64,000 bases of DNA from Acutalibacteraceae bacterium (GTDB lineage: Bacteria; Bacillota; Clostridia; Oscillospirales; Acutalibacteraceae). Of the stretch, positions 7,463 through 60,070 are shown piece after piece (positions within the stretch are counted from its first letter, which is position 1; each line of letters starts with the position of its first letter). The notes beneath the pieces were generated by a model, which worked only from the letters and a program-made list of their open reading frames with translations, ran no database searches and was not told the DNA's origin. A program made the position numbers and the translations under genes. The stretch is taken from NCBI GenBank assembly GCA_045590515.1, contig JAZNRD010000033.1, positions 51,456 through 115,455 on the forward strand. Direction: 5' to 3'.

Positions 7463-7885
7463 ATGTATTACGGCGGACCGTATAGACCGTCCTTTCGCGA
7501 AAGACTTATGCGCTTTTTTGCCGGGCGCAACGGCTTTGACAGACTTTGCTCCGCGCTCTCGGTTTTATATTTTGTTTTGGCTATTATAAATTTGTTTGCT
7601 CGCTCGTGGGTTATAATTCTATTTGAATATGCAGTGCTGGGCGTTATTCTGTTTCGCACGCTCTCGCGCAACACTTATGCCAGACAGCGCGAAAATCTAA
7701 AGTATTACGAGCTTGAAAACAAAGTGCGCGGCTTTTTTGTTAGCAAAACCACACGTCTTCGCGACCGCGAGCACGTTTATAGGCGCTGCCCGTCTTGCAA
7801 AAGCACCCTCCGTCTTCCAAGGCGCAAAGGAAGACACACGGTAAAATGTCCGCGCTGCAGCCATCAGTTTAAAACGCGGGTATAG
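7463..7885 (+). CDS. small membrane protein with a C-terminal zinc ribbon
   Basis: 140 aa. Two hydrophobic helices, then CPSCKSTLRLP...VKCPRCSHQF (CxxC...CxxC). Confidence 0.7.
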   Translation: MYYGGPYRPSFRERLMRFFAGRNGFDRLCSALSVLYFVLAIINLFARSWVIILFEYAVLGVILFRTLSRNTYARQRENLKYYELENKVRGFFVSKTTRLRDREHVYRRCPSCKSTLRLPRRKGRHTVKCPRCSHQFKTRV

Positions 7886-7926
7886 AAAAAGAACGCTTAG
7901 GGTAGAGCAAATAAGCCGAACCCCAC

Positions 7927-7951
7927 AGGACGACCATCGGTCGTCCTTTTT
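7927..7951 (+). terminator. rho-independent terminator of the 7463..7885 gene
   Basis: AGGACGACC-ATC-GGTCGTCCT followed by TTTTT. Confidence 0.8.
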
Positions 7952-7958
7952 ACTTTTT

Positions 7959-7987
7959 CGGGTCGTCGTGGGCGCCGACCCCTACGG
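7959..7987 (-). repeat. REP-like element 1: GTAG head plus GC-rich palindrome
   Basis: The minus strand reads GTAGGGGTCGGCGCCCACGACGACCCG. GTAG is followed by a GGGTCG/CGACCC stem. Confidence 0.55.
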
Positions 7988-8022
7988 TGTTTGTAAATTT
8001 TTTGTGCATTGCCTTCCCCTTT

Positions 8023-8051
8023 CGGGAGGGCACAGAGACCCTCCCCTACGG
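8023..8051 (-). repeat. REP-like element 2: GTAG head plus GC-rich palindrome
   Basis: The minus strand reads GTAGGGGAGGGTCTCTGTGCCCTCCCG, with a GGGAGGG/CCCTCCC stem. It matches 59764-59790 at 26/27 and 59930-59957 at 26/28. Confidence 0.6.
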
Positions 8052-8076
8052 TTATAAAAATATAATCCCACCGCGC

Positions 8077-8108
8077 AAGGAACGACCTGTGTGCCGTTCC
8101 TTTTTTAT
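8077..8108 (+). terminator. second terminator-like hairpin closing the REP-like cluster
   Basis: AAGGAACG-10 nt loop-CGTTCCTT followed by a T-run. Confidence 0.55.
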
Positions 8109-8267
8109 TTGGAAAAAAATAATGGATTGTTGGCTTATTTTTAGGTGTATACAATATTTAGAAAATAACTAATTTTTTACTTTTGTCACTTCGCTTGTAG
8201 TGTTTACTTAAAATAGTGCATTTTATACAAATTTTCAGAATTTTACTGTTTATTCGGTACTGTTTTG

Positions 8268-8296
8268 TTGACATTTACTATAAAAAGCTTTATATT
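8268..8296 (+). promoter_or_regulatory. sigma-A type promoter, TTGACA-17-TATATT
   Basis: TTGACA at 8268-8273, a 17-nt spacer, TATATT at 8291-8296. It lies about 60 nt upstream of the large secreted-protein gene. Confidence 0.65.
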
Positions 8297-8358
8297 ATAT
8301 ATGTATTAGTTTTTGTATTTTTACTAAACATACAAAATATTTTTAAGGAGTGTTTTTT

Positions 8359-11300
8359 ATGAAGAAACTTCTCAGCATTCTCCTCAGCGTGCTGCTGCTT
8401 CTCAGTACTATGGCTGTACTGACAATCCTACCTGCAGTAGCCACCACCACCGAGAACGAACCTGTTAACCTCATTGTTAACGGTGACGGTTCTATGAAAA
8501 CTTGGGGAGACAACAAGGATGAGAACGGTAATGCGTACACTACAATTACCGATACGACAAATCCTAACTTTGGCCTGATTGTTCAAAGCAATTTTTACGG
8601 TTGGCGTTCTATGAATTATGGGACAAAAACGACAACCGACCCGGAAACAAGTGAAACTACGACCACCTACACACCATATGCAAACTGTAGTATCCGTTGG
8701 ACCAAAACTCCCAATGTTCCCGACTTGTATTATGCGGGATATACAACCGATACCAACGGCATATCTCTGCAGGTAAACAATGGTAATGCCTCAATGCAGG
8801 ACATTAAGATTGAAAAGGATAAAACTTACACTGTTTCTTTTGATGCCACGTTTTATCCCAAGGCGTCTTCTGCCGCTGTGACAGGCTTATGGTTCGACGC
8901 GCATATTGATGACGGCGCAGGCGAATTTATGTGTGATAAATGGCCTGGTACAGGCAGCACTGAAAATAAATATGTTGCTGTTACCGGCAAATCTTATGAC
9001 CTATGCGACCAAAACGATGATGTTTACAACGAAATGGTAGTTGATACCACAACAAAAGCCTATGATACTTACTCATATACTAAGTCCGACGGTACCACAG
9101 TAACCAATTGGGACTTTGGAGGCTTCAAAAACTACACATTTACATTTGCCGCAAATGACGTTATCAATGATTTTTCAATGACTGACGATGATAGTGACGG
9201 TTATTATGATGCTCGCTTTGTTATAAAGAACAACTGCTCTACCATTTTATTGTTCGACAACGTTACGATTTATGAGTCGCATAATATTATTTCAAGCGAC
9301 GGCGGATATGTAAACACAGAATTTGCATACGCAAATACTACTTCAACCATCGTCGCTACCCCTTATTATGGAAACAACTTCAAGGGTTGGTATAATGGCG
9401 ACACTCTTGTATCTACAAGTGCTACATATACAGGCGTTATAACAAGCGACCTTACTGCTAAGTTTGATGTTTATAACCAAATCGTTGACGGAAGCTTTGA
9501 ATCTGGAACTGATGCAGGAATAACTCAATTTACTGAAGCTAAACGTTATAGTACTATTGCAATTTCCCCCACACTTGTATCGCCTACTGAAACCCCAGCT
9601 GCTACTCATGGAAATTACTGTCTTGAGATTAATCCCGGCGACACAACCAATGCAGCATCTAAACAGCTTTTTAATCTACCGGTAACCATAAGCAAGGATA
9701 CAGAGTACTATTTTGAATACTATGTATATTGCGTTCCCTCTACCTATACAGATAGTGCGGGAACAGAGGTAACTAACAATTATTTCAATTCTTATTTTTG
9801 TCCAATTGTAGGCACATCACTATCATCGTGGAACACATCATCTCTTAATCTATTCAAAAGTTATACCTATACTTTTTTCAATGAAAACGGCAAAAAGAAT
9901 AATACAAATGTATATTCTTGGAATGGTACGGTGCAAGCCGCAAAAACAATGCTGACAGTGGACACTCGTATGGTATCGATTAATCAGCAATGGGTATGCG
10001 TCCGTTTATTGTTTAATTCGGGAAATAGTGAAGATATATTCGGAACTGATACAACTGCCACTTTAAACCTTCAAATAGGTGTTGAAAATGCTATAAACGC
10101 CGACATACGCCTTGACAATATCTTCTTTGGTGAAAGCACGCAAAACGCTAATATGACTGCAACTGCAGGCGGAACCGTTTCCACCGCTACAACAGTTCCG
10201 ATGCATTACAAATCCACCGCATATGGCTCACTTCCTTCAGAAACAGATTATACTGTAAGCTATTACCCTGCAAAAGCAAATGAATACACTGCTACAGCCG
10301 ACACCGGTTACCGCTTTGTTGGTTGGTATGACGGAGATACATTGGTTTCGTCAAACGCTACAGAAATTTTCTATAGCGGCAAAAACTACACCGCTAAGTT
10401 CGAGCCTGTTCCCACCTACACCATCACCGCCACCGCAGAAAAGAACGCAGACGGTATTTACGGCGGATATGTTATTAATAAGTCACAGGTTATAAACGAG
10501 GCTGAAAATGTTACAGTTAACGCAGTAACCTACGCAGGCAACACCTTTGAGGGTTGGTACAACGGTGAAACAAAGGTTTCTTCTAATGAATCCTATACCT
10601 TTACCGTAGCATCGGATGTTGACCTTGTTGCTAAGTGGAATGTAGAGAACCTCTGGCCCGACTCCGGTTACGAAAACACCGAAATCGGTCTTGAGCAGAT
10701 GATACACCACAACATAAACGGTCAGTGGAAAGCGAAAGGCAACTTTGCATATTGGTCTCATGCAAAAGCGGTCACAGACAGAGTAAATTCCGGTAGCGCT
10801 TCTCTGTTCCTCCAGCATCGCAACAACGAGGTTGGAACAGAAGTTTCAGTTACTCCGAACACTGACTATGAATTTTCGCTTAACTGGAGAATATATCCTA
10901 CCGATTCTCGTTTTTCACAAATTAGTGTTTATAGTGAGAATGGCAGTAAAATAGCCTATTTTGATATCAACACGCCTTACTCCACCGATTTTCAAAACAC
11001 AAAGGTAGTATTTAACAGTGGTAATAACGATAAAATATTTATTGCATTTACCTATACCGCAGGCTCTCCTGGAATTTGGCTTGATGATATTGTTCTTGTT
11101 CCGTTCACAGGCGAAGATACCGGTTACTACCGTGTAACATATGACTTTGGCGACAGCAATATGGTAAACGCTATAGAATATGTTAAGGGTGGAGAGTATA
11201 CACTTAGAGCCCATACATTCTTCGAACGCAGTACTGTAATGAAGGATTTTGTAAACTACACTGTAGGTAGCGAAAATAAGGTTCCCGGTGATGTAATTAC

Positions 11301-12999
11301 CGTTGAAGGTGACATTACCGTAACAATTAACTACAAAGACCACGTTAGCAGCGACCTTACAGATAACACCACATTTGACCCGGCAAACTATGAGTTCACC
11401 TTTGCAGCCCTTCCCGACCCGCAAAAGTTGCTCTTACATCACGGTGATTACTATGGTAAGATTGGCGAATGGCTGATTGCAAATAAGGAAGCATACAAGA
11501 TTGCCGGCGTTATGGCTCTTGGCGACCTTACTGAGCATGGCTCTTGGACACAATTCTCTGCTTCTTATGACGCATTTAAGGACGTAATTAAGGCAATGCC
11601 CTTTGGCGTTTCGCTTGGTAACCATGACTACATGGGTGGCGGCGGAACAGGAAACTACACCGCGACACAAGGACCTGAATACAACACTCTTTACAACCAC
11701 TTCTTTAAAGATGATATTGTAGAGTCCTTGCTTGCAAATAACGGCGGCGCATATCCGTACGTTAACAAGGCAATAGAGGGCTACGAAGTAATGTCTGCCG
11801 ATGCCGATATAGATGATGTTACCAATACATATTATGTATATGACAATGGCTATATCGTAATTTCCCTTGAAATCTACCCCCGTACCGAAATTCTTAACTG
11901 GGCAAACGCTATTGCTAAGGCTAACCCCGAAAAGAAAGTTATTGTTACAACACACTCGCATCTTGGCGACAACGGCGAGCTTTTAAACGATGACGACCTC
12001 TATTATATTGCTGCAAACGAAACAACTAATAGTGGCACAACCGTTCGTGAGACGCTTCTTGAAACCAACTCCAACATTGTAATGATGGTTTGCGGTCATG
12101 ACTCTACTCAGCAAATCGTTTATGACGAGCATACACGCGAAGACGGAAGCATCTATTACGAAGTTCTTATTGATAACCAGGACGACGATGAAAACTATCG
12201 CGGTGTTGGTATGGTAGCACTCCTCGGTTTCCGTGCAGACGGCACTATTGACACAACCTACTACTCGACCATTTGGAACAAGTATTTCAAGAGCGACGTT
12301 AACGAAGTTACATTTGATTTTGGCATTACATCGCATTCCGATGTTGCAGAAAACGTAACCGAAGGCGAAGCAATTGATACATCTGTTGTTGACAATGATA
12401 GATACTTCATCCCCTACGGCGCACTTTACTACACCGATGAAAATGGTGATATTAAGTATGTTGACAAGGATGCAGACGGCAAATTTACCGCACCTGTTAC
12501 AGGCACATTTAATTTCACAGGATTTAAAAAGCCTGCATTTGGTAAGCTTTTAACCTTCGGCGCTTCCGCTAACCCGACCGACGGCACTGTTCAGTACGGT
12601 TCCTACATTGAAAGTGTTACAGAAGGTACACAGTACGGTACAATGTTTATCACAGGCGACTGGGATGCATTTGTTAAGTATTATCAGGATAATAAATCCT
12701 GGACTGTTGACGAGATTGTTGCAAAGGTAAGCGCTATGTATGACAACAAAATCGCTAACTACGACGGCTATGTTCCGATTAGCGCGGGCGAAGATATCGC
12801 AATTTTTGTATACAAGGTTGACCAGAAAAACTGGATGTATAAGAACGACGGCGGTGTACTCGAATTTGCACTCCGCGTTGTAGGTCTTGAGGCTAATCAG
12901 AATTGTACTGCAGTTGCTTACGCAAAGACCGAAAGCGGCTGTGAGTTCTCAGAAAATGTTATAAGCACAAGCTTTAATAAGCTCGTTGGCGCTAACTAA
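8359..12999 (+). CDS. large secreted multidomain protein: three CBM-like beta-sandwich modules each followed by a Listeria-Bacteroides repeat, then a calcineurin-like metallophosphoesterase domain
   Basis: AAGGAG RBS at 8345-8350 and ATG at 8359. Signal peptide MKKLLSILLSVLLLLSTMAVLTILPAVA. Three repeats of the G(N/Y)xFxGWY(N/D)G(D/E)T(L/K)VS type at ~9361, ~10303 and ~10535. Phosphoesterase motifs GDLTEHG, GNHD, TTHSHL and CGHD fall at ~11500-12110. Confidence 0.85.
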   Translation: MKKLLSILLSVLLLLSTMAVLTILPAVATTTENEPVNLIVNGDGSMKTWGDNKDENGNAYTTITDTTNPNFGLIVQSNFYGWRSMNYGTKTTTDPETSETTTTYTPYANCSIRWTKTPNVPDLYYAGYTTDTNGISLQVNNGNASMQDIKIEKDKTYTVSFDATFYPKASSAAVTGLWFDAHIDDGAGEFMCDKWPGTGSTENKYVAVTGKSYDLCDQNDDVYNEMVVDTTTKAYDTYSYTKSDGTTVTNWDFGGFKNYTFTFAANDVINDFSMTDDDSDGYYDARFVIKNNCSTILLFDNVTIYESHNIISSDGGYVNTEFAYANTTSTIVATPYYGNNFKGWYNGDTLVSTSATYTGVITSDLTAKFDVYNQIVDGSFESGTDAGITQFTEAKRYSTIAISPTLVSPTETPAATHGNYCLEINPGDTTNAASKQLFNLPVTISKDTEYYFEYYVYCVPSTYTDSAGTEVTNNYFNSYFCPIVGTSLSSWNTSSLNLFKSYTYTFFNENGKKNNTNVYSWNGTVQAAKTMLTVDTRMVSINQQWVCVRLLFNSGNSEDIFGTDTTATLNLQIGVENAINADIRLDNIFFGESTQNANMTATAGGTVSTATTVPMHYKSTAYGSLPSETDYTVSYYPAKANEYTATADTGYRFVGWYDGDTLVSSNATEIFYSGKNYTAKFEPVPTYTITATAEKNADGIYGGYVINKSQVINEAENVTVNAVTYAGNTFEGWYNGETKVSSNESYTFTVASDVDLVAKWNVENLWPDSGYENTEIGLEQMIHHNINGQWKAKGNFAYWSHAKAVTDRVNSGSASLFLQHRNNEVGTEVSVTPNTDYEFSLNWRIYPTDSRFSQISVYSENGSKIAYFDINTPYSTDFQNTKVVFNSGNNDKIFIAFTYTAGSPGIWLDDIVLVPFTGEDTGYYRVTYDFGDSNMVNAIEYVKGGEYTLRAHTFFERSTVMKDFVNYTVGSENKVPGDVITVEGDITVTINYKDHVSSDLTDNTTFDPANYEFTFAALPDPQKLLLHHGDYYGKIGEWLIANKEAYKIAGVMALGDLTEHGSWTQFSASYDAFKDVIKAMPFGVSLGNHDYMGGGGTGNYTATQGPEYNTLYNHFFKDDIVESLLANNGGAYPYVNKAIEGYEVMSADADIDDVTNTYYVYDNGYIVISLEIYPRTEILNWANAIAKANPEKKVIVTTHSHLGDNGELLNDDDLYYIAANETTNSGTTVRETLLETNSNIVMMVCGHDSTQQIVYDEHTREDGSIYYEVLIDNQDDDENYRGVGMVALLGFRADGTIDTTYYSTIWNKYFKSDVNEVTFDFGITSHSDVAENVTEGEAIDTSVVDNDRYFIPYGALYYTDENGDIKYVDKDADGKFTAPVTGTFNFTGFKKPAFGKLLTFGASANPTDGTVQYGSYIESVTEGTQYGTMFITGDWDAFVKYYQDNKSWTVDEIVAKVSAMYDNKIANYDGYVPISAGEDIAIFVYKVDQKNWMYKNDGGVLEFALRVVGLEANQNCTAVAYAKTESGCEFSENVISTSFNKLVGAN

Positions 13000-28101: not shown

Positions 28102-30354
28102 TTAATCCTCCTTGTTCTGTGCGGCATACCAGTTCATAAGACAGCCCGAAAGCAGAATTTCGCGCTCCTTATCTGTAAGCCCTGCCATATGAAGAGTAAT
28201 CTCTTTTGCGCCGTTTTCGCCTATTAAATAGCCCTTTATAGACTCTTGTCCACTCTTCACAGCCTCTTTAATTCCGGGCACGAAAACATAGTCGTACGGC
28301 TCATAATCAAACTCTACCGACTCGTCGATAGTAAAGGGCATCATACCCCAGTTTATGCAGTTAGAGCGGTAACGCTTGGTTGCATATTCGTAGCAGATGT
28401 TTGCACCGCCGCCAAGCACACGCTGGCAAGAAGCCGCCTGCTCACGCGCAGAGCCGTCACCGGGCTTATTTGCAAATACGCAGGAAGCTACCGCGGTGTT
28501 TCCTAAAACCTCAGCATCAAAGCCTGCTTTTTTGAGCGCCGCAAGAGTGCTCTCATCGGGGTTGCCGTCAGCACGGTGCTGCTCCTCTGCACGAATGTTT
28601 GCAGTACGCGCAACATAGTCGGGGTCGCGGCGTGACAGCGCAAAGGTGGCAAGCTTTAACGGATTCGAACGGTAAGAAGAGGTTTCACCCGACGGAATAA
28701 GCTCGTCGGTTGTAGTTACGGGGTCGTGAATTACGCTGGCAAGACGGAGAAGTAAATTATCCGCAAGCGCAGGAATTCTCGGCCATTCGGTAATGTTGGG
28801 ACCAAAGCGAAGCTCAGCCTTTTCGTCGGCCTTCCCGAAGCCGAAATAAACACGCTTTTCGTAAGGTGCCTTTTCAAAGGTAAGCGGCTTTTCTTCGGGC
28901 ATTTTATAATCAATATCGGTAGCAGGAGTCAGCACACCGCCGTTTTTAGCGGTTGCAGCAATACTGCGTGCGTCCATAAGCATAACAGCCGAAAGCTGAC
29001 CGTCACCGGGGCGTGAGCCCTCACGGTTGGGGAAGTTACGGGTGGTGTGACGAATGGAAAGACCGTTGTTAGACGGAACATCGCCCGCACCGAAGCAAGG
29101 ACCGCAGAAGCAGGGCTTAAAGAGCGCGCCGCTTTCAAGCAGACTTTGCTGAATTCCGTCCTTGATAAGACGAAGATTAACAGGAACAGAGGGCGGATAA
29201 ACCGAAAGTGAGAAATATCCGTTGCCGACCGAGCTGTCACCTAAAATTGCGGCAGCCTCGGCTATGTTGTCATACATACCGCCTGCACAGCCCGCTATGA
29301 CGCCCTGGTCAACCATAATTTGTCCGTTTTTGACCTTGTTTGTAAGCTCAAGATGAACCTTGCCACCGAACTGCTCCTCAGCACGAAGCTCAGCCTCACG
29401 CAAAAGCTCGACACCGCCTGCAATCAGCTCGCGTACGGTATATGCCTCTGACGGATGGAATGGCAGCGCAGCCATACATTCAACCTTGCTAAGGTCGATT
29501 TCAATAACGCTGTCGTAGTATGCACCCTCCGCAGGCTCTAAGCGCTTGTATTCATCCGCTCTGCCGTGAACGGTAAGGTATTCTTCAACGCGGCTGTCGG
29601 TAGTCCAGATTGAAGAAAGACAGGCAGTTTCGGTGGTCATAACATCAATTCCGATACGGAAATCCATAGGAAGACTATCTACACCGGGACCTGCGAATTC
29701 GAGCACCTTGTTTTTAACAAAGCCGTTTTTATAAGTAGCGCCGCACAGAGCGATAGCAACGTCGTGCGGACCTACACCTCTCTGCGGCTTGCCCGTAAGG
29801 TATACAAGCACAACCTCGGGCGAGGCAACATCATATGTGTTAGAAAGCAGCTGCTTTACGATTTCGGGGCCGCCCTCACCGATACCCATAGTACCCAAAG
29901 CACCGTAACGGGTATGGCTGTCCGAGCCTAAAATCATTTTGCCGCAGCCGGTCATCATCTCGCGTGCGTACTGGTGAAGCACAGCCTGGTTGGCAGGAAC
30001 ATAGATACCGCCGTATTTCTTAGCGGCAGAAAGACCGAAAACATGGTCATCCTCATTTATCGTGCCGCCAACAGCGCAAAGACTGTTGTGGCAGTTGGTC
30101 ATAACATACGGTACAGGGAACTTCTTAAGTCCGCTTCCGCGTGCAGTCTGGATAATTCCTACATAGGTTATATCGTGCGAAATAAGGCTGTCAAACTTTA
30201 TACGCATAAGCGCGTCGTCGCTTGACGAGTTATGAGCATTCATAACCGTATAAGCCATTGTTTTTTTGCGTGCCTCGGTGACGTTTACGTTGTCGCCTGC
30301 GGGAACAGGTCTGCCGTTTTGCCACAAAGCACCGCCTTTTTTAAGAGTTACCAT
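28102..30354 (-). CDS. acn: aconitate hydratase
   Basis: 750 aa. Aconitase-family motifs GSDSHT and CGPCFG. Confidence 0.88.
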   Translation of the reverse strand: MVTLKKGGALWQNGRPVPAGDNVNVTEARKKTMAYTVMNAHNSSSDDALMRIKFDSLISHDITYVGIIQTARGSGLKKFPVPYVMTNCHNSLCAVGGTINEDDHVFGLSAAKKYGGIYVPANQAVLHQYAREMMTGCGKMILGSDSHTRYGALGTMGIGEGGPEIVKQLLSNTYDVASPEVVLVYLTGKPQRGVGPHDVAIALCGATYKNGFVKNKVLEFAGPGVDSLPMDFRIGIDVMTTETACLSSIWTTDSRVEEYLTVHGRADEYKRLEPAEGAYYDSVIEIDLSKVECMAALPFHPSEAYTVRELIAGGVELLREAELRAEEQFGGKVHLELTNKVKNGQIMVDQGVIAGCAGGMYDNIAEAAAILGDSSVGNGYFSLSVYPPSVPVNLRLIKDGIQQSLLESGALFKPCFCGPCFGAGDVPSNNGLSIRHTTRNFPNREGSRPGDGQLSAVMLMDARSIAATAKNGGVLTPATDIDYKMPEEKPLTFEKAPYEKRVYFGFGKADEKAELRFGPNITEWPRIPALADNLLLRLASVIHDPVTTTDELIPSGETSSYRSNPLKLATFALSRRDPDYVARTANIRAEEQHRADGNPDESTLAALKKAGFDAEVLGNTAVASCVFANKPGDGSAREQAASCQRVLGGGANICYEYATKRYRSNCINWGMMPFTIDESVEFDYEPYDYVFVPGIKEAVKSGQESIKGYLIGENGAKEITLHMAGLTDKEREILLSGCLMNWYAAQNKED

Positions 30355-30503
30355 TTGAATCCCTCTTTGCTTAAATAAAATTTTTACATATTACTATACC
30401 ACAAAACAAAAATAAAATAAAGCCTTTTTATAAAATATTTTTCATATATAGACTGCCGCCCCAAACAGAGTATGCAAACACTTCCACAATTTGTAAAAAC
30501 ATC

Positions 30504-30532
30504 TTGCCAATAGACTTAAATTGGTGTATAAT
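30504..30532 (+). promoter_or_regulatory. sigma-A promoter TTGCCA-17-TATAAT
   Basis: TTGCCA at 30504-30509, TATAAT at 30527-30532, upstream of citrate synthase. Confidence 0.65.
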
Positions 30533-30569
30533 AACATATTATTTTATTCCTTTAAAGAGGGTGTTCCCT

Positions 30570-31928
30570 ATGAGCAATTTTAAAACAGAGCTTGAACAAG
30601 TAAGCCACGCTCTTGATGGCTTTGGTGAAAACATTGAAAGTGTTTACACCGTAGACCAGGGCTATGCCACCAAGCGCGGACTTCGAAACGATGATGGCAC
30701 AGGAGTGCTTGTTGGCGTTACGGGTATAGGCAGTGTTCAGGGTTACTATATGGAGGACAGTGAGCGTGTACCGACCGAAGGTCAGCTTTATTACCGCGGA
30801 ATAAGCGTGCTTGATATTATAAAAAGCCACCGTGAGAGCAACACCTTCGGCTATGAAGAGGTTGCATATCTACTGTTGTTCGGCAAGCTTCCCACAAGAG
30901 AAGAATTTGAACGCTTTAACGCAATTCTTTCGCGCAACCGCGCCCTGCCCGACAGCTTTACGGAGGACGTTTTACTCCGTGCTCCGTCGCGCAATATTAT
31001 GAATCAGCTCTCCCGCGGAATTGAGGCGCTTTATTCGTATGACGAGATTGACGATGACACCTCGCCCGAAAATCTGCTGCGTCAGTCGATTGAGCTTATA
31101 GCCCGTTTCCCGTCGATAGTTGCCAACGCTTACGCCGTTAAGCGCCACCGTTTTTACGGCAAATCGCTTTACATACATAACCCCAAATCAGGTCTTTCGC
31201 TTTCGGAAAACTTTCTTAGAATGGTTCGTCCCGACAAGACCTATACCGACGAAGAGGCAAAGCTGCTTGATATAATGCTCATCTTGCACGCTGAGCACGG
31301 CGGCGGTAACAACTCTGCCTTTGTTTGCCGCGCGGTTTCCTCAAGCGGTACCGATACCTATAGCGCTATTGCGGCGGCTGTAAACTCGCTTAAAGGACCG
31401 CTGCACGGTGGAGCCAACGCAAAGGTTATGGAAATGATAAGCTTTATAAAGCGTGACCTTCCCGACTATTCGAACGAGGAAAAGCTTCGTGATTATCTTA
31501 ATAAACTGCTTGACGGCACCGCAGGTGACCGCTCGGGCAAGATTTACGGACTTGGACACGCGGTTTATACAATTTCTGACCCGCGCGCAGTTTCGATTCG
31601 TGAGAGCGCACGCTCGCTTGCCGAAAAGTACGGCAGAATTGAAGAGCTTAAGCTTCTTGAAAATATTGAGCGTATAGGCAAGGAGCTCATTTGCGAACGC
31701 AAAAAGCTTTCGCTCCCGATTTGTGCAAATGTCGACCTTTATTCAGGCTTCGTTTACGATATGCTTGGCATACCCGAGGATTTGTATACTCCCCTCTTCG
31801 CCATCGCCCGCGTTGCAGGCTGGTGTGCTCACCGTATGGAAGAGCTTATTTCGTGCAAGCGCATTATGCGCCCTGCTTATAAGGCGGCCGTTAAAAAGCT
31901 GCCCTATACCCCACTTGATGAAAGATAA
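30570..31928 (+). CDS. gltA: citrate synthase
   Basis: Start set to MSNFKTELEQV (RBS AAAGAGGG). Citrate-synthase signature regions LILHAEHGGGNNSAF and GLGHAVY. Confidence 0.88.
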   Translation: MSNFKTELEQVSHALDGFGENIESVYTVDQGYATKRGLRNDDGTGVLVGVTGIGSVQGYYMEDSERVPTEGQLYYRGISVLDIIKSHRESNTFGYEEVAYLLLFGKLPTREEFERFNAILSRNRALPDSFTEDVLLRAPSRNIMNQLSRGIEALYSYDEIDDDTSPENLLRQSIELIARFPSIVANAYAVKRHRFYGKSLYIHNPKSGLSLSENFLRMVRPDKTYTDEEAKLLDIMLILHAEHGGGNNSAFVCRAVSSSGTDTYSAIAAAVNSLKGPLHGGANAKVMEMISFIKRDLPDYSNEEKLRDYLNKLLDGTAGDRSGKIYGLGHAVYTISDPRAVSIRESARSLAEKYGRIEELKLLENIERIGKELICERKKLSLPICANVDLYSGFVYDMLGIPEDLYTPLFAIARVAGWCAHRMEELISCKRIMRPAYKAAVKKLPYTPLDER

Positions 31929-31929
31929 C

Positions 31930-31959
31930 AAAACCCCGATGCTTACGCGTCGGGGTTTT
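31930..31959 (+). terminator. rho-independent terminator
   Basis: AAAACCCCGA-loop-TCGGGGTTTT. Confidence 0.8.
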
Positions 31960-32092
31960 CTTTATAAAACAAACGCAAAACAGTGTAATATAAACTCGCT
32001 TGTGTCGTTTTGTGTATATTGGAATGTTTTGTGCATTTACATAAACTAAGCTTTCAGTTAGACTATTTTCTAAGCTACAGGAGGTAGAGTTT

Positions 32093-34009
32093 ATGGTTTC
32101 GCTTAAAATACATAACAACATTCCCGTACAAAATGATTTCTGGGGCAACGGCGCTATTTATCACGGCTTTGCCGGTCAGCCCGACGATATGGACCGCGTA
32201 TACACAGAAGAGCAGTGCGACCTCGAGGCCGCTCGTGCCGCTAATATGCGCCTTAAAATTGCGCGCACCTTTTACGGCTGGTGGGCCTTTGATGAAGCGC
32301 GCGGTGTATGGGATTGGGATAATGAGCGAATGACCGCTTTCTACGGCTGGCTTTCTCGCATGAAGGCAGCGAACATTACCGTTGCACTTAATACGGGCTG
32401 GTGCTCACCCGGCGACATTAACTCGACCTGTTGGAACGGCAAAAGTCCGTTTACTGTAGAAAATGACTGGGAGCAAAGCGTTAAAAACTACGCCGACTGG
32501 GTTAGCGAAACCGTTTATCAGTTAGTAGAGCTTCGCGGCTTTACAAATGTAAAAATTTTAACTCTGTTTACCGAGCCGCAGCGTTATAGCGGAAAGCCAA
32601 ACGACCCGTCGCAGACTCCGTATGACCTTTGGTTTGAGTCTTCAAAGGCGGTACACGAGGCTCTCCTTCGCGACGGCAGAAGAGATAAGGTTTTCCTTAT
32701 GGGGCCCAATGAGGGTAGCACTGTTTCGAGTGATATGCTCAAGGAGATGGCACAAAAGGCCGACTTTATTGATATTTTTTCGAGCCACAACTATCAGTGG
32801 GTTGAAACCGCTAAGGCAGAATATATAAAGACAGGCAACACCTATATGGCTTTAACACGCCAGTTTTCGCGCGCAAGCCAAAAGGTTAAGCTAAAGCCGA
32901 AAACCGACTATGTCGCCACTATTGATATGCTCTATAAATCGGATTTCCCCGACCAGCAGGGCAGCTTTATATTCGGTGTATACAAATACCACGAAAGCGG
33001 AGATATTGTTGCAGGCGGACTTCTTCCCTCCGCCACATATGACAGTATCTTAGTAATAAATCCGAACGATATCCCCAAAACCTATAAGCGTTATACAATT
33101 CGCTTTAATTCGGGTGATGTGACCGAGGCGCTGTTCGGCGTATTCTCGGGTGTTAAGTGGCCCGATGTTCTGAACACCAATACACTCGGCGTAACCGACA
33201 AAAGCGACACGCGCAAGCCCGGCGTTGCTTTTATAGAAAAGATGAGTCTTGTTGAGATTGCAAGCGGCACTCAGATTGCAGAAAACCACGATTTCAGCAA
33301 AAACTATGAGGGCTGGAACATAACCAGCACCGCAGGCGGCGTGCCCGAGCCGTATACCGATTGGTACAGTTGGTCAAAAACCGCTTTGGCGGCTCTTCCT
33401 GGAGAAAAAAACAACAAGGCATACTGCTACGACGAATACAATATAACCTACAACCGCGACAATTCACGCGATGAATTAGGCGCAGAGCTTGTAGATGCGG
33501 CAGTTGCTCTTATGAACAGCGGTGTACGCGCCACGATGCTTTGGACACTTTTTGACCAGCAGTGGCCCAATAACCATACATATAATAACGATTCGTTCGT
33601 GGACGGTGACCATCGCTGCGGTCTTATGCCGAATTTGCGTTTCTCCACCGTTCCGCACAAAGCGTTTTATGCATTTTCCCTGCTCAGCCGCTATGTTGAC
33701 GGCTTCGGCACCAAGGTTTATGAGGGTGAAGGAAAAGACGGCGTTCACGCTACTATGAGCTTTTCAGCGGACGGCGAAATTACAATAGTTGTTGTAAACA
33801 ACAGCCCCAAAGAGCGCGATTTCACGCTTATGCTTGACAGTCCTCTTTTCGTTACTATGTTCCGCCACCGCTTTGACCCCAAAACACTCATACCCGATGC
33901 AAAGGCAAAGCCAATTCCCGCAGACCATAAATATAAAAGTATAGGCGACTGCATTTGCGACCACATAGCACCCTACGGTGTTACGGTCTACACAACACAT
34001 AAAGACTAA
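32093..34009 (+). CDS. putative cytoplasmic glycoside hydrolase, clan GH-A-like TIM barrel with an inserted beta-sandwich module; family not assignable
   Basis: 638 aa, no signal peptide. LFTEPQ (NEP-like acid/base position) and CYDEYN (candidate nucleophile strand) are split by a ~170-aa insertion. Confidence 0.45.
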   Translation: MVSLKIHNNIPVQNDFWGNGAIYHGFAGQPDDMDRVYTEEQCDLEAARAANMRLKIARTFYGWWAFDEARGVWDWDNERMTAFYGWLSRMKAANITVALNTGWCSPGDINSTCWNGKSPFTVENDWEQSVKNYADWVSETVYQLVELRGFTNVKILTLFTEPQRYSGKPNDPSQTPYDLWFESSKAVHEALLRDGRRDKVFLMGPNEGSTVSSDMLKEMAQKADFIDIFSSHNYQWVETAKAEYIKTGNTYMALTRQFSRASQKVKLKPKTDYVATIDMLYKSDFPDQQGSFIFGVYKYHESGDIVAGGLLPSATYDSILVINPNDIPKTYKRYTIRFNSGDVTEALFGVFSGVKWPDVLNTNTLGVTDKSDTRKPGVAFIEKMSLVEIASGTQIAENHDFSKNYEGWNITSTAGGVPEPYTDWYSWSKTALAALPGEKNNKAYCYDEYNITYNRDNSRDELGAELVDAAVALMNSGVRATMLWTLFDQQWPNNHTYNNDSFVDGDHRCGLMPNLRFSTVPHKAFYAFSLLSRYVDGFGTKVYEGEGKDGVHATMSFSADGEITIVVVNNSPKERDFTLMLDSPLFVTMFRHRFDPKTLIPDAKAKPIPADHKYKSIGDCICDHIAPYGVTVYTTHKD

Positions 34010-34013
34010 CTTT

Positions 34014-34045
34014 AAAAAGCCGAAGATTTTTCTTCGGCTTTTTCT
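34014..34045 (+). terminator. rho-independent terminator
   Basis: AAAAGCCGAAGA-TTTTT-CTTCGGCTTTT. Confidence 0.8.
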
Positions 34046-34046
34046 A

Positions 34047-34099
34047 TTGACAAAATAAAAACTTCGTGATATACTACATTTAACAATTAAGTTAAATGT
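34047..34099 (+). promoter_or_regulatory. promoter TTGACA-17-TATACT, immediately followed by the palindrome ACATTTAAC-6-GTTAAATGT (ArsR/SdpR operator candidate)
   Basis: TTGACA at 34047-34052, TATACT at 34070-34075, inverted-repeat arms at 34076-34084 and 34091-34099. Confidence 0.6.
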
Positions 34100-34115
34100 T
34101 AAATGAGGTGACTGT

Positions 34116-34379
34116 ATGGGACTGCAAAACACACTTCGCGCACTCGCCGACCCTGTGAGGCGTGATATACTTAACATGCTCAAAAGCGGGCGTCTTTCGG
34201 CGGGTCAAATAAGTGAGCATTTTTCAATTACCGATGCGGCGATTTCCCGCCATTTATCGGTACTGAAGGATGCTGACCTGATACGCGACACGCGCGAGGG
34301 CAAATATATATATTATGAGCTTAACGCCTCGGTGCTTGAGGAAATAATGCTCTTTATAACCGATTTGAAAGGAGAATAA
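34116..34379 (+). CDS. ArsR/SmtB-family (SdpR-like) transcriptional repressor
   Basis: 87 aa. LADPVRRDILNMLKSGRLSAGQISEHFSITDAAISRHLSVLKDADLI is a typical ArsR wHTH. Confidence 0.85.
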   Translation: MGLQNTLRALADPVRRDILNMLKSGRLSAGQISEHFSITDAAISRHLSVLKDADLIRDTREGKYIYYELNASVLEEIMLFITDLKGE

Positions 34380-34381
34380 AT

Positions 34382-35455
34382 ATGATAAAAAATAATAAAC
34401 TGAAGACCTTAATTTCTTCAATTATAACCCTCCTGCCAATAGTATTTGGACTAATAATGTGGGATAAACTACCCGCTAATATGAACATACACTGGAATAT
34501 AAGCGGTGAGGCAGACGGCACAGGAAGCAAAGCTCTTGTCGTATTTTTAGTTCCGCTTGTTTTGCTTTTATTTCATTTAATTTGTTTAATTGTAACCTCT
34601 TTCGACCGCAAGCAAAAAGAGCAAAATCCCAAGGCGCTTTCGATAGTTTTTTGGATTATACCTGCTCTTTCGGTTTACGTAAACCTCATTATGTATTCCT
34701 TTGCTTTTGGTTACGAAATTAAAATGGAAGCAATAACCCTTATTTTGCTTGGAGTTTTGCTCGCGGTAATAGGCAATTATATGCCCAAGGTTAAGCAGAA
34801 CAGCACCTTAGGTATTAAAATTAAGTGGACGCTTGAAAATGAGGAAAACTGGAACGCCACCCACCGTTTTGCCGGTCGCGTATGGTTCTTTTGCGGCATA
34901 GGCTTACTGATATCTGTTTTCTTTGCCACCACAGCATACATTATAGCTTTTATATTAGTTGCACTGCTTCTTGTTACCGCGGTAGTTCCTATCATTTACT
35001 CCTTTGTATACTATCTAAAGCAGAAGAAAGCAGGCACTGCTGTTTTAACACCCTTAAGCAATACTCAGAAAAAAGCAAGAATATTCGCTTGGATTGCTAT
35101 TATTATCGTGTTGCTTGTTCTGACATTTATAATGTTTACGGGCGATATAAAAATAGACTACAGCGAAGATTACTTCAAAATAAACGCCACTTACTATGAC
35201 GATGTAACGGTAAAATATGAAGATATAGACAGTATAGAATACCTCGAGACTGATAAAAAAGGTATAAAAATAAACGGTTTCAACAGTGCGCGTCTGCTGC
35301 TTGGAATCTATGAGAATGATGAGTTTGGCAAACACACACGCTTTTCATATACCGCTTGCGATAGTGCAGTTGTGCTGAAAATTGAAGACAACATTTTGGT
35401 TTTGAGCGGAAAAGATACCGCCGAAACAAAGGAAATTTATAATAAACTCAAATAG
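34382..35455 (+). CDS. SdpI-family membrane protein (DUF1648 + SdpI-like TM core) fused to a C-terminal PH-like soluble domain
   Basis: 357 aa, adjacent to an SdpR-like gene with a 2-nt gap. Multiple TM helices, and the WTLENEENWNATHRFAG motif typical of SdpI/YhfL proteins. Confidence 0.7.
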   Translation: MIKNNKLKTLISSIITLLPIVFGLIMWDKLPANMNIHWNISGEADGTGSKALVVFLVPLVLLLFHLICLIVTSFDRKQKEQNPKALSIVFWIIPALSVYVNLIMYSFAFGYEIKMEAITLILLGVLLAVIGNYMPKVKQNSTLGIKIKWTLENEENWNATHRFAGRVWFFCGIGLLISVFFATTAYIIAFILVALLLVTAVVPIIYSFVYYLKQKKAGTAVLTPLSNTQKKARIFAWIAIIIVLLVLTFIMFTGDIKIDYSEDYFKINATYYDDVTVKYEDIDSIEYLETDKKGIKINGFNSARLLLGIYENDEFGKHTRFSYTACDSAVVLKIEDNILVLSGKDTAETKEIYNKLK

Positions 35456-35481
35456 AAAAAAGGCTGCGTTGCAGCCTTTTT
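35455..35481. terminator. bidirectional terminator
   Basis: AAAAAAGGCTGC-GTT-GCAGCCTTTTT between convergent genes. Confidence 0.8.
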
Positions 35482-36523
35482 ATTTTAGTTCTGTAAGTAG
35501 CTTTGTAAGCGCATTTCCGACAAGCTCTGCCGAATAGACCGCCTCCTCCAGCGTGTTGGCGTCTGTACCCATTTCTATCAGCATAGAGCCGGTTGTGAGG
35601 TGCTGGTTATATAGCTTTGAGGTCAGCAAAATCGGTCTTGCAAGAGAGGGGTACATTTCCTCGAGCGTCTTGTGAAAAAGCATACAAAGGCGCATATTTT
35701 CGCGCCAATTCGGATACCCCTCAACATTTCCCGTCTGACTGCCTTGCACTAACATTACCTGTGCCGCTTTCTTGCCGTCTATCTCCTTTACAAGCTTTAT
35801 TTTATCGCTGCCGTCCGCCACTGCATCCCTATGTATGTCTATCACAATTTTTATTGACGGGTACTTTTTAAGATAGCTTTTTATAGTAGCTTTAGAGGCA
35901 TTGTAGCTACCTGTGTACGACGGATAATCGTGCAATGTTTTGTCGTGCAAAACCGCATATCCCGCATTTTTTACAACCGCCGCAACCGTTTCACCTATTT
36001 TTATCATATTTTTATCCGCCTCGGTCGAGCGCGAGGCATCACTTTTGGTGTAGTAGTCGCGTTCTTCAAGCATATAAGATTCGGTCGCGTGGGTGTGAAC
36101 AATAAGTATTTGCGGCGTATCACCCTTGCTTATTTTTATATCGGTGCCCGTCTTTAGTTCACTTTTTATATTAACCTCTGCACCCGAAATATTCTTTAAA
36201 TACACGCCGCCATAGGAGTTGGTCGCGCTGCTCGGCGCTATGGTGCGCGATATTATTTTGCCGCTTACCGTTTTGTCCTCTGCTACGGTTGTTGTCTGCT
36301 CTTTTGAGGACACGGGTGCGCTTGAAGCAGACTCGGTTTCTGAGGAAACCTCTGCCGTCTGCTGACCGCCTGATACAACAGACTCTGACGACTGTATTTG
36401 CGTGCTGCTGTTTTCCGCAACAGGTATATTTCCAAAAGCGAGTGTCACTGTGCCGTAAAGCAGCGTACATACCGACAAAACTGCCACAAGCGCGAGCCTT
36501 AACACCGCCAAAGATTTATTCAT
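35480..36523 (-). CDS. spoIIP: stage II sporulation protein P
   Basis: Signal/anchor MNKSLAVLRLALVAVLSV, and ILIVHTHATESY matching the SpoIIP IYHTHxxESY signature. Conserved position after gpr. Confidence 0.85.
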   Translation of the reverse strand: MNKSLAVLRLALVAVLSVCTLLYGTVTLAFGNIPVAENSSTQIQSSESVVSGGQQTAEVSSETESASSAPVSSKEQTTTVAEDKTVSGKIISRTIAPSSATNSYGGVYLKNISGAEVNIKSELKTGTDIKISKGDTPQILIVHTHATESYMLEERDYYTKSDASRSTEADKNMIKIGETVAAVVKNAGYAVLHDKTLHDYPSYTGSYNASKATIKSYLKKYPSIKIVIDIHRDAVADGSDKIKLVKEIDGKKAAQVMLVQGSQTGNVEGYPNWRENMRLCMLFHKTLEEMYPSLARPILLTSKLYNQHLTTGSMLIEMGTDANTLEEAVYSAELVGNALTKLLTELK

Positions 36524-36565
36524 AAAAATTATCACCCGATAAATTATATGTATTCCCTCGAATAA

Positions 36566-37378
36566 TTAGACGAGGGAAAGCAATATTTCCTGTTCTATTT
36601 CGGGTTGCAGTGCAAAGTTTATAGCGTGCGACAAAAGCTCACTCGCGCGGGATATTAGCAAATCTATATCCCGTATTGTGACCAAAAAACCGTCCTTACC
36701 TCCTAAATTTCCCGAGTCGGTTACGGTGGGAATTCCAACTGCTATAACGGGTATGCCAAGCGTTTGCTCGCTTAGCTCTTTGCGGCGGTTTCCAACGCCT
36801 GAACCGGGCGAAATTCCCGTGTTGCTTATCTGCACAGTGGTGCCAAGCCGTATAACATCCGCCGCGGCAAGCGCATCCACCGCAATAACTGCCTCCGGCT
36901 TTACGGTATCACAAACGGCGCGTATCACCTCTGCCGACTCTATCCCCGTCCGACCAAGCACCCCGGGGGACAGCACCGCAACGCTTTTAAACTCAAGCCC
37001 CGTGCTTTTTTGAAATTCAGCCGATAAATGCCGCGTTGCAAGCACGCCGTCGGCCGTTCGGGGACCTAAAGCATCGGGTGTTATTTCGGTGTTGCCGACA
37101 CCTATAACGAGCACCCTTTCCCTGCCGTTTAACAGCTTCTTTATCTCACCCGCTATAACCCTTGCCGCGCCGTCGGTCTCTGAAAGGCCGAGCGCAATAT
37201 CGCCAACATCGGCGGTTATATATCTGCCCACACGCCTACCCGTTTCCTTTGAAGCATTTTCGGTTTCCACCGTTATGTCAGTGATATTCACACCGTTTTC
37301 ACTGCGCTCTTTTTTTACAATTCCCTCATACGATTTTACCTGCTCACACGCCTCAACTGCCAAGTCTGTTGACCACAT
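36566..37378 (-). CDS. gpr: GPR endopeptidase (spore germination protease)
   Basis: STDLAVEA motif near the N-terminus and GVGN...PDALGP region. Start uncertain (ATG 37378 versus upstream TTG 37429). Confidence 0.85.
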   Translation of the reverse strand: MWSTDLAVEACEQVKSYEGIVKKERSENGVNITDITVETENASKETGRRVGRYITADVGDIALGLSETDGAARVIAGEIKKLLNGRERVLVIGVGNTEITPDALGPRTADGVLATRHLSAEFQKSTGLEFKSVAVLSPGVLGRTGIESAEVIRAVCDTVKPEAVIAVDALAAADVIRLGTTVQISNTGISPGSGVGNRRKELSEQTLGIPVIAVGIPTVTDSGNLGGKDGFLVTIRDIDLLISRASELLSHAINFALQPEIEQEILLSLV

Positions 37379-37479
37379 TTTACCAGTTCCTTTGCCGTTT
37401 TTAGTATTATTGGTAGCAAAGAAGAACAATATACCGCGTATATTTGTGAACTTTTAGAGGCAAAATTTTAAAAAAAGTG

Positions 37480-37508
37480 TTGCATTTCTCTTCAATTAGT
37501 GGTAAAAT
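37480..37508 (+). promoter_or_regulatory. sigma-A promoter TTGCAT-17-TAAAAT
   Basis: TTGCAT at 37480-37485, TAAAAT at 37503-37508, upstream of rpsT. Confidence 0.6.
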
Positions 37509-37542
37509 GCCTTTACATGAGATTTTACGAGGAGGTGGGAAA

Positions 37543-37806
37543 ATGCCTAACATCAAGTCTGCAAAGAAGCGTGTTATCGTAAGTGAGAATAACGCAATGC
37601 GTAATAAGAGCATCCGTTCTGAGCTTCGCACTTCTATAAAGAAGGCTGACGCAGCTATCGCAAACAACGCTTCCGATAAGGATGCAGCTGTAAAGCTTGC
37701 CGTTAAGAAAATCGATGCGGCTACCACTAAGGGTATTCTTCACAAGAACAATGCCGCCAGAAAGAAGTCTGCGCTTGTTAAGCGTCTTAACAAAGCTGAG
37801 GCTTAA
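37543..37806 (+). CDS. rpsT: 30S ribosomal protein S20
   Basis: MPNIKSAKKRVIVSENNAMRNKSIRSELRT. RBS GAGGAGG upstream. The ORF-track start is too far upstream. Confidence 0.95.
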   Translation: MPNIKSAKKRVIVSENNAMRNKSIRSELRTSIKKADAAIANNASDKDAAVKLAVKKIDAATTKGILHKNNAARKKSALVKRLNKAEA

Positions 37807-37830
37807 AGCAGTTATTTAATTGAAGCATTT

Positions 37831-37859
37831 CAGGCCTTGCTTCGCAAGGTCTGTTTTTT
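37831..37859 (+). terminator. rho-independent terminator of rpsT
   Basis: CAGGCCTTGC-TTC-GCAAGGTCTG followed by TTTTTT. Confidence 0.75.
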
Positions 37860-37915
37860 GCTACATTCAGCACAAGGCTTAAAATAAAACCGGCAGTCCC
37901 CTGTCGGTTTTCTTC

Positions 37916-37944
37916 TTGACTTTATGCACACGCACCTATATAAT
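37916..37944 (+). promoter_or_regulatory. consensus-like promoter TTGACT-17-TATAAT
   Basis: TTGACT at 37916-37921, TATAAT at 37939-37944, upstream of greA. Confidence 0.65.
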
Positions 37945-38012
37945 GTATAAATGTATGTATATAATACATTGACTCCGCATATTATTTTAAAAAACATAAG
38001 GAGATTATTGTA

Positions 38013-38477
38013 GTGGCTAAAACAATTCGTCTTACCGACGACGGCCTTAAAAAGCTCCAGAATGAGCTTGAGTATTTAAAAACCGAAGGCCGTAAGGACA
38101 TAGCAGAAAAAATCAAGGTTGCCAGAGGTTACGGCGACCTTTCCGAAAACAGCGAATATGATGAGGCAAAGAATGACCAGGCTAAGATAGAGGCTCGCAT
38201 TGTTGAACTCGAAAGCATGCTCAAAAATGTGGAAATTATCCAGGCAGAGTCGGGCGACACCGTAACAATGGGCTCTAAGCTCAAGGTGCTCGATGTTGAG
38301 TTTGATGAAGAGTGCGAGTATCAGATTGTCGGCTCACCCGAGGCTGACTCAAGACGCGGTCTGATTTCCGACGAATCACCCGTTGGAAAGGCTTTGCTCG
38401 GACACAAGGTGGGCGACGAGGTCGTAGCTGAGGCTCCGGGTGGAAACATCGTTTTCAAAATCTTAGAAATATATTAA
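38013..38477 (+). CDS. greA: transcription elongation factor GreA
   Basis: 154 aa, GTG start after [23 protein letters not shown]...[17 protein letters not shown] is the GreA coiled-coil signature. Confidence 0.93.
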
Positions 38478-38537
38478 TTTTCGGGGCAGTCCACTGACTG
38501 CCCTTGTTTTAAGTTTTACTTAAAAGGACGTGAATTT

Positions 38538-40028: not shown

Positions 40029-40033
40029 TAATC

Positions 40034-44616: not shown

Positions 44617-44617
44617 T

Positions 44618-59556: not shown

Positions 59557-59587
59557 AAAGGACTCGGTTTCCCGAGTCCTTTTTTTA
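59557..59587. terminator. second terminator (bidirectional; overlaps the Y1-transposase stop codon)
   Basis: AAAAGGACTCGG-TTTC-CCGAGTCCTTTTTTT. Confidence 0.8.
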
Positions 59588-60070
59588 TTGACTATAATAG
59601 CAATCGTCTTGCCACTTTTGAGGATTTGTATCAATGTAATTCCAGATTTTCAAGTAATCTTCCTCACCGCGTATTATGTGGTCGTGAAATGAGCGTTGCC
59701 ATAATGTTTTACCGTATTTATTGGTTGTAAATGATTTAAGCCGTCCGATTACATCCTGCACTTGTAGGGGAGGGTCTCCGTGCCCTCCCGTTCCATTATC
59801 AATTCTAATTATTAAATGAATATGATTTGGCATAATAACGAATTTATCGACCATTATTCCGATATAACTTTCGCTTATATATTTTATTGATTCTTCAACA
59901 ATTTTTCCTATTGGGGAAAGAATTATTGACGGGAGGGCGCAGAGGCCCTCCCCTACGATGTTTCCAAAAAGATTTTGCTTTTTATGCGTGCATATTGTTA
60001 TAAAATATGCGCCGTCGCTACTGTAATTATAATCTTTTAACCGTGTCGGTTTGCGCTTTTTTAAATACAT
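59585..60070 (-). CDS. Y1 HUH transposase-like protein (IS200-like / REP-associated tyrosine transposase, RAYT-type)
   Basis: MYLKKRKPTRLKDYNYSSDGAYFITICT, HUH motif MPNHIHLII, and the catalytic-Tyr region SFHDHIIRGEEDYLKIWNYIDTNPQKW. The ATG at 60068-60070 overlaps the upstream stop as TAATG. No terminal inverted repeats or IS ends were seen. Confidence 0.78.
   Translation of the reverse strand: MYLKKRKPTRLKDYNYSSDGAYFITICTHKKQNLFGNIVGEGLCALPSIILSPIGKIVEESIKYISESYIGIMVDKFVIMPNHIHLIIRIDNGTGGHGDPPLQVQDVIGRLKSFTTNKYGKTLWQRSFHDHIIRGEEDYLKIWNYIDTNPQKWQDDCYYSQ
59764..59790 (+). repeat. GTAG-headed palindrome copy inside the Y1 transposase CDS (head on the plus strand)
   Basis: GTAGGGGAGGGTCTCCGTGCCCTCCCG. 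It encodes GGHGDPPLQ on the minus strand. GC-rich patch in an AT-rich gene. Confidence 0.7.
59930..59957 (-). repeat. GTAG-headed palindrome copy inside the Y1 transposase CDS (head on the minus strand)
   Basis: The plus strand reads CGGGAGGGCGCAGAGGCCCTCCCCTACG. It encodes VGEGLCALP. The same peptide, VGEGLCALP, is produced by the intergenic copy at 8023-8051. Confidence 0.7.

Follow-up and report, generated by a model that had tools for sequence, protein, structure and literature searches.

A probable BIME-like mosaic cluster of GTAG-headed REP hairpins in a Clostridia genome, with one element cognate to hairpins inside a RAYT-like gene

REP elements are short hairpins that recur in DNA and are associated with RAYT, a domesticated transposase, in a system familiar from other bacteria. 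The closest described relatives of the system reported here belong to TnpA_Y1 subclass 2.4 of Quentin, Siguier, Chandler and Fichant (2018; PMC6006769), which is the same as group 4 of Bertels. Proteins of this subclass carry the motifs NH[IFV]H, WQ and YIxNNP and have a median length of 194 aa, and their REPs combine a 5' GT[AG]G head with G-C pairing at the foot of the stem (PMC6006769). [quoted passage not shown] In their survey of GTAG REPs, Di Nocera et al. (2013; PMC3733652) list Proteobacteria, Cyanobacteria, Chloroflexi and PVC, and no Firmicutes. According to Bertels et al. (2017), group 4 occurs in 17 bacterial classes, and the only group for which they mention Clostridia is group 1; our own literature search for RAYT in Firmicutes returned only unrelated microbiome papers. 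RAYT biochemistry is confined to groups 2 and 3, in which cleavage occurs at CT or CA by the hairpin, with GTAG as the guide (PMC8266576). In other bacteria, REPs are known to terminate transcription or to stabilise mRNAs (PMC3733652).

By analogy with TnpA_REP of E. coli, Stenotrophomonas and Marinomonas, and with IS608 and ISDra2, a REP hairpin of the kind described below would form on single-stranded DNA, where the HUH/Y1 enzyme would bind the stem plus the unpaired 5' GTAG, and the GTAG would guide the choice of the flanking dinucleotide. The catalytic tyrosine would cut and rejoin single strands via a 5'-phosphotyrosine, and this cutting and rejoining could copy, insert or delete REPs.

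Here, we analysed a stretch of 64,000 nucleotides of Acutalibacteraceae DNA (hereafter, the window), in which tandem REP-like palindromes had been predicted from the letters of the sequence. With a probability that we put at roughly 0.85, positions 7953-8107 are a small BIME-like mosaic REP cluster, located in the T-tract of the intrinsic terminator that follows the upstream gene, with an element (element 2) that is cognate to the RAYT encoded in the window. The cluster comprises two intact GTAG hairpins of different types and, as it appears, one decayed hairpin of a third type. The original prediction considered REP/RAYT systems not to be well characterised in Clostridia. Because in-frame REPs are a published hallmark of subclass 2.4 (PMC6006769), the novelty is limited to the host group.

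The hairpin cluster and its intergenic site

The features of the site are as follows.

7463-7885, plus strand: 140-aa zinc-ribbon ORF, upstream of the cluster
7886-8349: intergenic region, flanked by two plus-strand ORFs
7927..7952, plus strand: intrinsic terminator of the 140-aa zinc-ribbon gene (terminator scan), with a stem at 7927-7947 and then a T-run
7953-8107: 155-nt block that carries three REP-type hairpins, from the alignment with L214, L215 and L216
7985..7959, minus strand: REP element 1, which reads GTAGGGGTCGGCGCCCACGACGACCCG, with the structure GTAG + GGGTCGgCG-CCCA-CGaCGACCC + G; type GGGNCGGCG..CGACGNCCC
8049..8023, minus strand: REP element 2, which reads GTAGGGGAGGGTCTCTGTGCCCTCCCG, with the structure GTAG + GGGAGGG-TCTCTGTG-CCCTCCC + G
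8075..8106, plus strand: third hairpin, in the opposite orientation, GCAA-GGAACGAC-CTGTGT-GCCGTTCC followed by T6
8268-8296: predicted promoter of the next gene
8350-12999, plus strand: 1549-aa ORF, downstream of the cluster

Two tandem GTAG-headed GC palindromes had been predicted on the minus strand, in the same orientation and 64 nt apart, within 7959-8051. We re-read both at 7985..7959 and 8049..8023, in direct orientation and 64 nt from start to start; the right end of the predicted span lies 2 nt too far. The predicted layout, with GTAG joined directly to a short GC stem, is borne out. In elements 1 and 2 and in both copies inside the RAYT gene, GTAG directly abuts the stem, every stem starts with GGG, the stems are 6-9 bp long, and the loops are 4-8 nt long; published REP search rules are thus followed only in part, the loops being 4-8 nt and the stems short. 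Folded as single-stranded DNA, element 1 reaches -10.0 kcal/mol (z -2.5) and consists of 6 bp, a G/A mismatch, 2 bp and a 4-nt loop, and element 2 reaches -7.4 kcal/mol (z -3.0), with 7 bp and an 8-nt loop. With its stem GGGTCGGCG..CGACGACCC, element 1 is a REP type distinct from element 2.

In the 64-kb window, with its GC content of 43%, a strict scan, which required GTAG followed by a perfect stem of 6 bp or more, yielded 7 hits. Four of them begin with GTAGGGG and have a G+C-rich stem (elements 1 and 2 and the two in-gene copies); the remaining 3 have AT-rich stems. The GTAGGGG heptamer alone is not significantly enriched in the window (7 occurrences vs. 3.2 expected). A relaxed scan of the window, which tolerated head mismatches and one stem mismatch, produced no further intact REPs; it matched ordinary terminator-like hairpins at 38480-38506 and 53042-53061, and the decayed third hairpin. 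The window contains one cluster of extragenic REPs.

The third hairpin (stem-loop 8079-8100 plus T6) resembles GTAG-GGAACGAC-CAGTGT-GTCGTTCC-T6 in L007, and the GTAG-GGAACGAC type also occurs in L134, beside a RAYT homolog, and in L222-L225. It is counted as decayed because it has a GCAA head in place of GTAG and, judging from this resemblance, looks like a decayed REP of a third type. The pair had been predicted to sit between two terminators: the upstream one is confirmed (7927-7947 plus the T-run), whereas the second lies inside the block and looks like the decayed REP.

Comparison of orthologous intergenic regions, which had been proposed as a check, revealed presence/absence variation between related strains at 7953-8107. 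L214 is a Logan contig that encodes a 140-aa protein 98% identical to that of the window and has flanks that are ~98% identical; it lacks 7953-8107, reading ...GGTCGTCCTTTTTA joined directly to TTTGGAAAAAAA. The block absent from L214 holds elements 1 and 2 plus the third hairpin, and the terminator 7927..7952 is also kept in this empty-site allele. Two independent Logan contigs with the same 140-aa protein as L214, L215 (2520-2552) and L216 (1018-1050), have element 1 at the same site and terminate inside it, and accordingly REPs appear to break metagenome contigs. The filled and empty alleles place the ends of one REP cluster within the T-tract of a terminator, and the native terminator at 7927..7952 would be the insertion target. 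The ends of the block are marked by the imperfect direct repeats TCCTTTTTA (7944-7952) and TCCTTTTTTA (8098-8107), and the difference between the alleles could instead be a deletion between these 9-10-nt repeats. In L217-L221, which hold more remote homologs of the 140-aa gene, other genes lie downstream; with synteny lost in all of them, none serves as an outgroup for polarising the 155-nt indel. A separate 23-nt indel, AGAGCAAATAAGCCGAACCCCAC at 7904-7926, just 5' of the terminator, is shared by the window and L214 and missing from L215 and L216.

Outside the hairpin cores, the block matches neither the RAYT gene nor other loci among the 221 loci compared. A composite MITE was considered and rejected, given that the spacers of the block match nothing in the 221 loci and that there are no terminal inverted repeats. 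Because the cluster lies past the native terminator and upstream of the predicted promoter, its effect at the locus is probably close to neutral; at most, it contributes back-up termination.

The cumulative GC skew has its minimum near 40 kb in the window and gives a faint hint, from two elements, that the strand carrying GTAG (minus) would be the lagging-strand template at 8 kb. Gene orientation shifts from mostly minus at 13.7-30 kb to mostly plus at 41-59 kb, and the skew minimum together with this switch (~30000-41000) resembles a replication origin. A low-GC stretch at 43378-52181 (32-38% vs. 43% for the window) contains a polysaccharide synthesis cluster, with genes for a DegT aminotransferase, a sugar transferase, GT2 and GT4 glycosyltransferases, LicD and a Wzy-like protein, which may have been horizontally acquired.

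The RAYT gene and its in-frame hairpins

The transposase gene and the hairpins within it are located as follows.

59585..60070, minus strand: RAYT / TnpA_REP-like Y1 HUH gene, 161 aa, with NHIH, LWQR and YIDTNP
59930..59956, minus strand (sense strand): intragenic REP 1, which encodes VGEGLCALP, in the loop before the HuH motif
59764..59790, plus strand (antisense strand): intragenic REP 2, which encodes GGHGDPPLQ, in the loop after the HuH strand

The protein contains the RAYT motifs PNHIHLII (HuH), LWQRS and YIDTNP; the HuH, WQ and Y..NP motifs are conserved in 23 aligned homologs and align to the matching motifs of 4ER8. It scores 23.9 with Pfam Y1_Tnp (cutoff 23), 63.8 bits with NCBIfam NF047646 (REP_Tyr_transpos, "REP-associated tyrosine transposase"), which is under the cutoff of 80 bits, and 20 bits with the IS200 model. 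Its best sequence match in the PDB is 4ER8, the E. coli TnpA_REP (E = 7e-7), and the AlphaFold model of the 161-aa protein (pLDDT 73.5, pTM 0.71) has ISDra2, 4ER8 and IS608 as its top Foldseek matches (E ~1e-4, TM 0.43-0.53). These results support the view that the protein is a Y1 HUH enzyme that is nearer, by score, to RAYT than to IS200. The gene would fit within, or next to, TnpA_Y1 subclass 2.4 / Bertels group 4, an assignment made from the motifs and traits published for the subclass. A protein search identified 4168 RAYT homologs, the few of which with source names are Clostridia MAGs.

No extragenic REPs flank the RAYT gene within 1 kb in the window and, without an extragenic REP beside the gene, the window has no classical REPtron. 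The start codon of the RAYT (60070) overlaps the stop of an asparagine synthase-like gene (60070-61602), which suggests that the two are co-transcribed; in homolog loci, the RAYT is not found in synteny with asparagine synthase or GGGtGRT genes outside the same species. On the other side, 59398-59592 repeats in tandem, at ~80% identity, the 3'-terminal ~150 nt of the GGGtGRT gene (58346-59356) together with its terminator; this copy is located between the real terminator and the RAYT 3' end, and also follows the RAYT in L212.

Element 2 had been predicted to be nearly identical to two segments inside the only Y1 transposase gene of the window, and this is the case: it differs from 59764-59790 (plus) by 1 mismatch and from 59930-59956 (minus) by 2 mismatches, with matches in 0 of 100 shuffles in the control. 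Judged by sequence, element 2 is cognate to the hairpins inside the window RAYT gene. The two in-frame REPs of this gene are inverted and 166 nt apart, and the pair faces outward, bracketing the HuH-coding segment.

The segments that the hairpins encode, VGEGLCALP and GGHGDPPLQ, fall in modelled loops (residues 40-47 and 91-101) of lower AlphaFold confidence and are the most conserved parts of the 23-homolog alignment, in which the codons of the stem and of GTAG do not vary, unlike those of the loop. These segments of annotated "transposases" thus derive from REP hairpins. Across 85 RAYT-like loci, we identified two perfect intragenic GTAG hairpins in 64, one in 14, and none in 6; some of the six hairpin-free genes have flanking REPs instead (for example, L155, L204 and L211). 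Intragenic hairpin 1 keeps the same position and frame, with GTA encoding Val in 74/74 homologs, and intragenic hairpin 2 uses two main frames, ending in ..PT in 36 and in ..PLQ or ..PLH in 32. Even in homologs with as little as 34% protein identity, perfect GTAG hairpins occupy fixed positions, and nearly all homologs have two of them, one on either side of the HuH motif, with heads facing outward. The stems vary by lineage, and the two copies within a gene are 93% identical, compared to 68% identity between genes (26 non-redundant genes). In some RAYT homologs (P0022, P0113), the GGHGDPPL segment is tandemly duplicated, which indicates that REP copies multiply within the gene with the frame kept, and L203:2111-2740 is one gene with three hairpins.

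The likeness of the copies within a gene points to a possible constraint at the DNA level or to concerted evolution, and the overall pattern suggests that the "tolerated insertion" view of intragenic REPs may fall short. One could go further and propose that in-gene REPs are selected functional DNA sites, serving either in self-recognition for gene regulation or rearrangement, or as protected masters that seed extragenic REPs, such as the cluster at 7953-8107, and keep them uniform; we regard this proposal as speculative and give it about one chance in four. In line with it are the persistence of the hairpins at fixed positions, the invariance of the stem and GTAG codons, the likeness of the two copies within a gene and, in one case (L019), a REP core that is better conserved than the protein.

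Dispersal in related genomes and the competing explanations

We scanned one genome per species for GTAGGGGAGGG-N5-11-CCCTCCC and identified at least 120 loci, about half of which are titled as Clostridia-type MAGs (Oscillospiraceae, Ruminococcus, Faecousia, Acutalibacteraceae). Two of the loci listed are from cultured strains, Gemmiger formicilis ATCC 27749 and Geosporobacter subterraneus DSM 17957, which also have this element and could serve as experimental hosts; beyond these and the MAGs, the loci among the matches listed are for the most part from Chloroflexi, Acidobacteria and Proteobacteria. Of the 192 GGGAGGG-stem matches listed (scan loci, viral loci and the window), 5 fall in RAYT-like genes and 137 are intergenic by crude ORF tiling; this tiling also puts many hairpins inside short ORFs, so that they are liable to be annotated as small genes in error. 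The exact 26-mer of element 2 was found outside RAYT genes, in unrelated flanks, in L040, L060, L063, L087 (twice) and L120. It is also present inside the RAYT gene of L019, the product of which is only 51% identical to the window RAYT, and a one-base variant lies beside that gene. A 27.7-kb sequence filed as viral (L002/L003, IMGVR_UViG_3300029305_011494; 36-38% GC) has 8 copies of the GGGAGGG REP; the hairpin there is part of a longer repeat, with flanks shared over the 45 nt shown upstream and ~15 nt downstream, and the repeat includes a second small hairpin upstream.

We further collected 80 RAYT-homolog loci from metagenomes (34-63% identity) and counted hairpins over the 1.69 Mb of all loci. 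Strict GTAG hairpins numbered 560 in 1.69 Mb, compared to 18 after block shuffling, and their density was about fourfold higher within 1 kb of RAYT genes (0.37/kb) than beyond (0.093/kb). The flanks of 419 extragenic copies show a pyrimidine at -2 (75%) and -1 (88%), G at +1 (75%) and a pyrimidine at +2 (73%), that is, a consensus YY-GTAG-hairpin-G, and both window elements, which read CC-GTAG...-G, are in line with it. Of 165 hairpin pairs spaced by less than 300 nt, the commonest arrangement in the related loci is inverted with heads outward (87 pairs), against 45 direct pairs and 33 with heads inward; the window pair is direct.

Taken together, these findings support the view that elements 1 and 2 are GTAG-class REP elements. 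The REP/RAYT interpretation offered in the original prediction is upheld by the motifs and fold of the RAYT, the dispersal of the element in Clostridia genomes, the flank consensus and the empty site in a close strain, and the REP/RAYT system is common in gut and rumen Clostridia.

The composition of the block leaves room for an alternative in which element 1 and the third hairpin belong to other RAYT lineages, located elsewhere or lost, or in which the block arrived by recombination and not by Y1 insertion. Element 1 is nearest to the antisense intragenic REP of the RAYT homologs L148, L149 and L153, from which it has three differences in the loop region, and the RAYTs of these loci are 42% identical to that of the window; the GTAG-GGAACGAC type adjoins yet another RAYT homolog, in L134; and direct repeats of 9-10 nt at the ends of the block are unexpected from Y1 transposition. 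However, element-1-like REPs adjoin GGGAGGG-type REPs in L038, L058, L060, L087 and L097, so that mixed clusters of these types are recurrent, one RAYT serves several REP subtypes elsewhere (for example, Y and Z2 in E. coli; PMC6006769), and all copies share the GTAG head and the flank consensus. We therefore consider this alternative somewhat unlikely, albeit the strongest competitor.

It is far less probable that the hairpins are resident regulatory or terminator RNA structures of the flanking genes, non-mobile and functionally unrelated to the transposase. Their position just past a gene end, the T-run of the third hairpin and the role of REPs elsewhere as terminators or mRNA stabilisers (PMC3733652) would all be compatible with such structures, but L214, with its ~98% identical flanks, lacks the block and retains an intact native terminator, the elements lie between that terminator and the predicted promoter at 8268-8296, and the 26-mer is found in unrelated contexts of other species. 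Furthermore, the hairpins have no match in Rfam, with only a tRNA at 53066 reported for the window at gathering thresholds.

The last alternative, raised along with the original prediction, that 7900-8110 represents, end to end, a pseudogene fragment left by the decay of a paralog of the Y1 transposase gene, could draw on the near identity of element 2 to two gene segments, but is refuted because nothing except the 27-28-nt hairpin cores aligns to the gene, the single tblastn match of the RAYT protein in the window is the gene itself, the intergenic pair is direct and 64 nt apart whereas the gene pair is inverted and 166 nt apart, and an identical 26-mer occurs in unrelated intergenic flanks of other genomes. 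We conclude that a mosaic REP cluster is the best explanation of the block.

Comparison with known systems

The IS200/IS605 elements (IS608, ISDra2) share with the system described here the Y1 HUH fold, subterminal hairpins with a 5' guide tetranucleotide, and single-strand chemistry. They differ in the Y motif, which is Y...Q, as opposed to Y..NP here; moreover, the gene here is present in a single copy, and its hairpins are inside the gene rather than flanking it, and inverted rather than direct.

The REP/BIME system of E. coli (group 2; 4ER8; PMC3479197, PMC8266576) likewise has GTAG at the 5' foot of a GC-rich hairpin, and mixed REP subtypes, compare the Y and Z types, grouped in intergenic DNA downstream of genes. 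By sequence, E. coli TnpA_REP is the closest solved relative of the window enzyme, with ~19% identity in the structural alignment. In E. coli, the REPs are present in hundreds of copies, their stems are longer and bulged, and they form regular inverted BIME pairs, whereas the intact pair here is direct and has short, perfect or near-perfect stems with 4-8-nt loops.

With the REPINs and group 3 RAYTs of Pseudomonas and Stenotrophomonas, the present system has in common short, perfect, GTAG-headed palindromes and the prevalence, in the related loci, of inverted pairs with heads outward. Unlike REPINs, the window pair is not an inverted doublet, the RAYT belongs to a different subclass, and the copy number looks far lower.

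Subclass 2.4 differs from the case described here in several respects: the host here is a member of Clostridia, the protein is shorter (159-161 aa vs. the median of 194), the Y motif is YIDTNP and not YIxNNP, one in-gene REP precedes HuH, whereas insertions are generally placed between HuH and Y in the published account, and the gene is without flanking REPs in the window. In other respects the two agree, namely, in the NHIH (NH[IFV]H), WQ and Y..NP motifs, in the GT[AG]G head and the G-C pairs at the base of the stem, in the in-frame REPs, and, as far as the 64-kb window shows, in a copy number that is low relative to groups 2 and 3.
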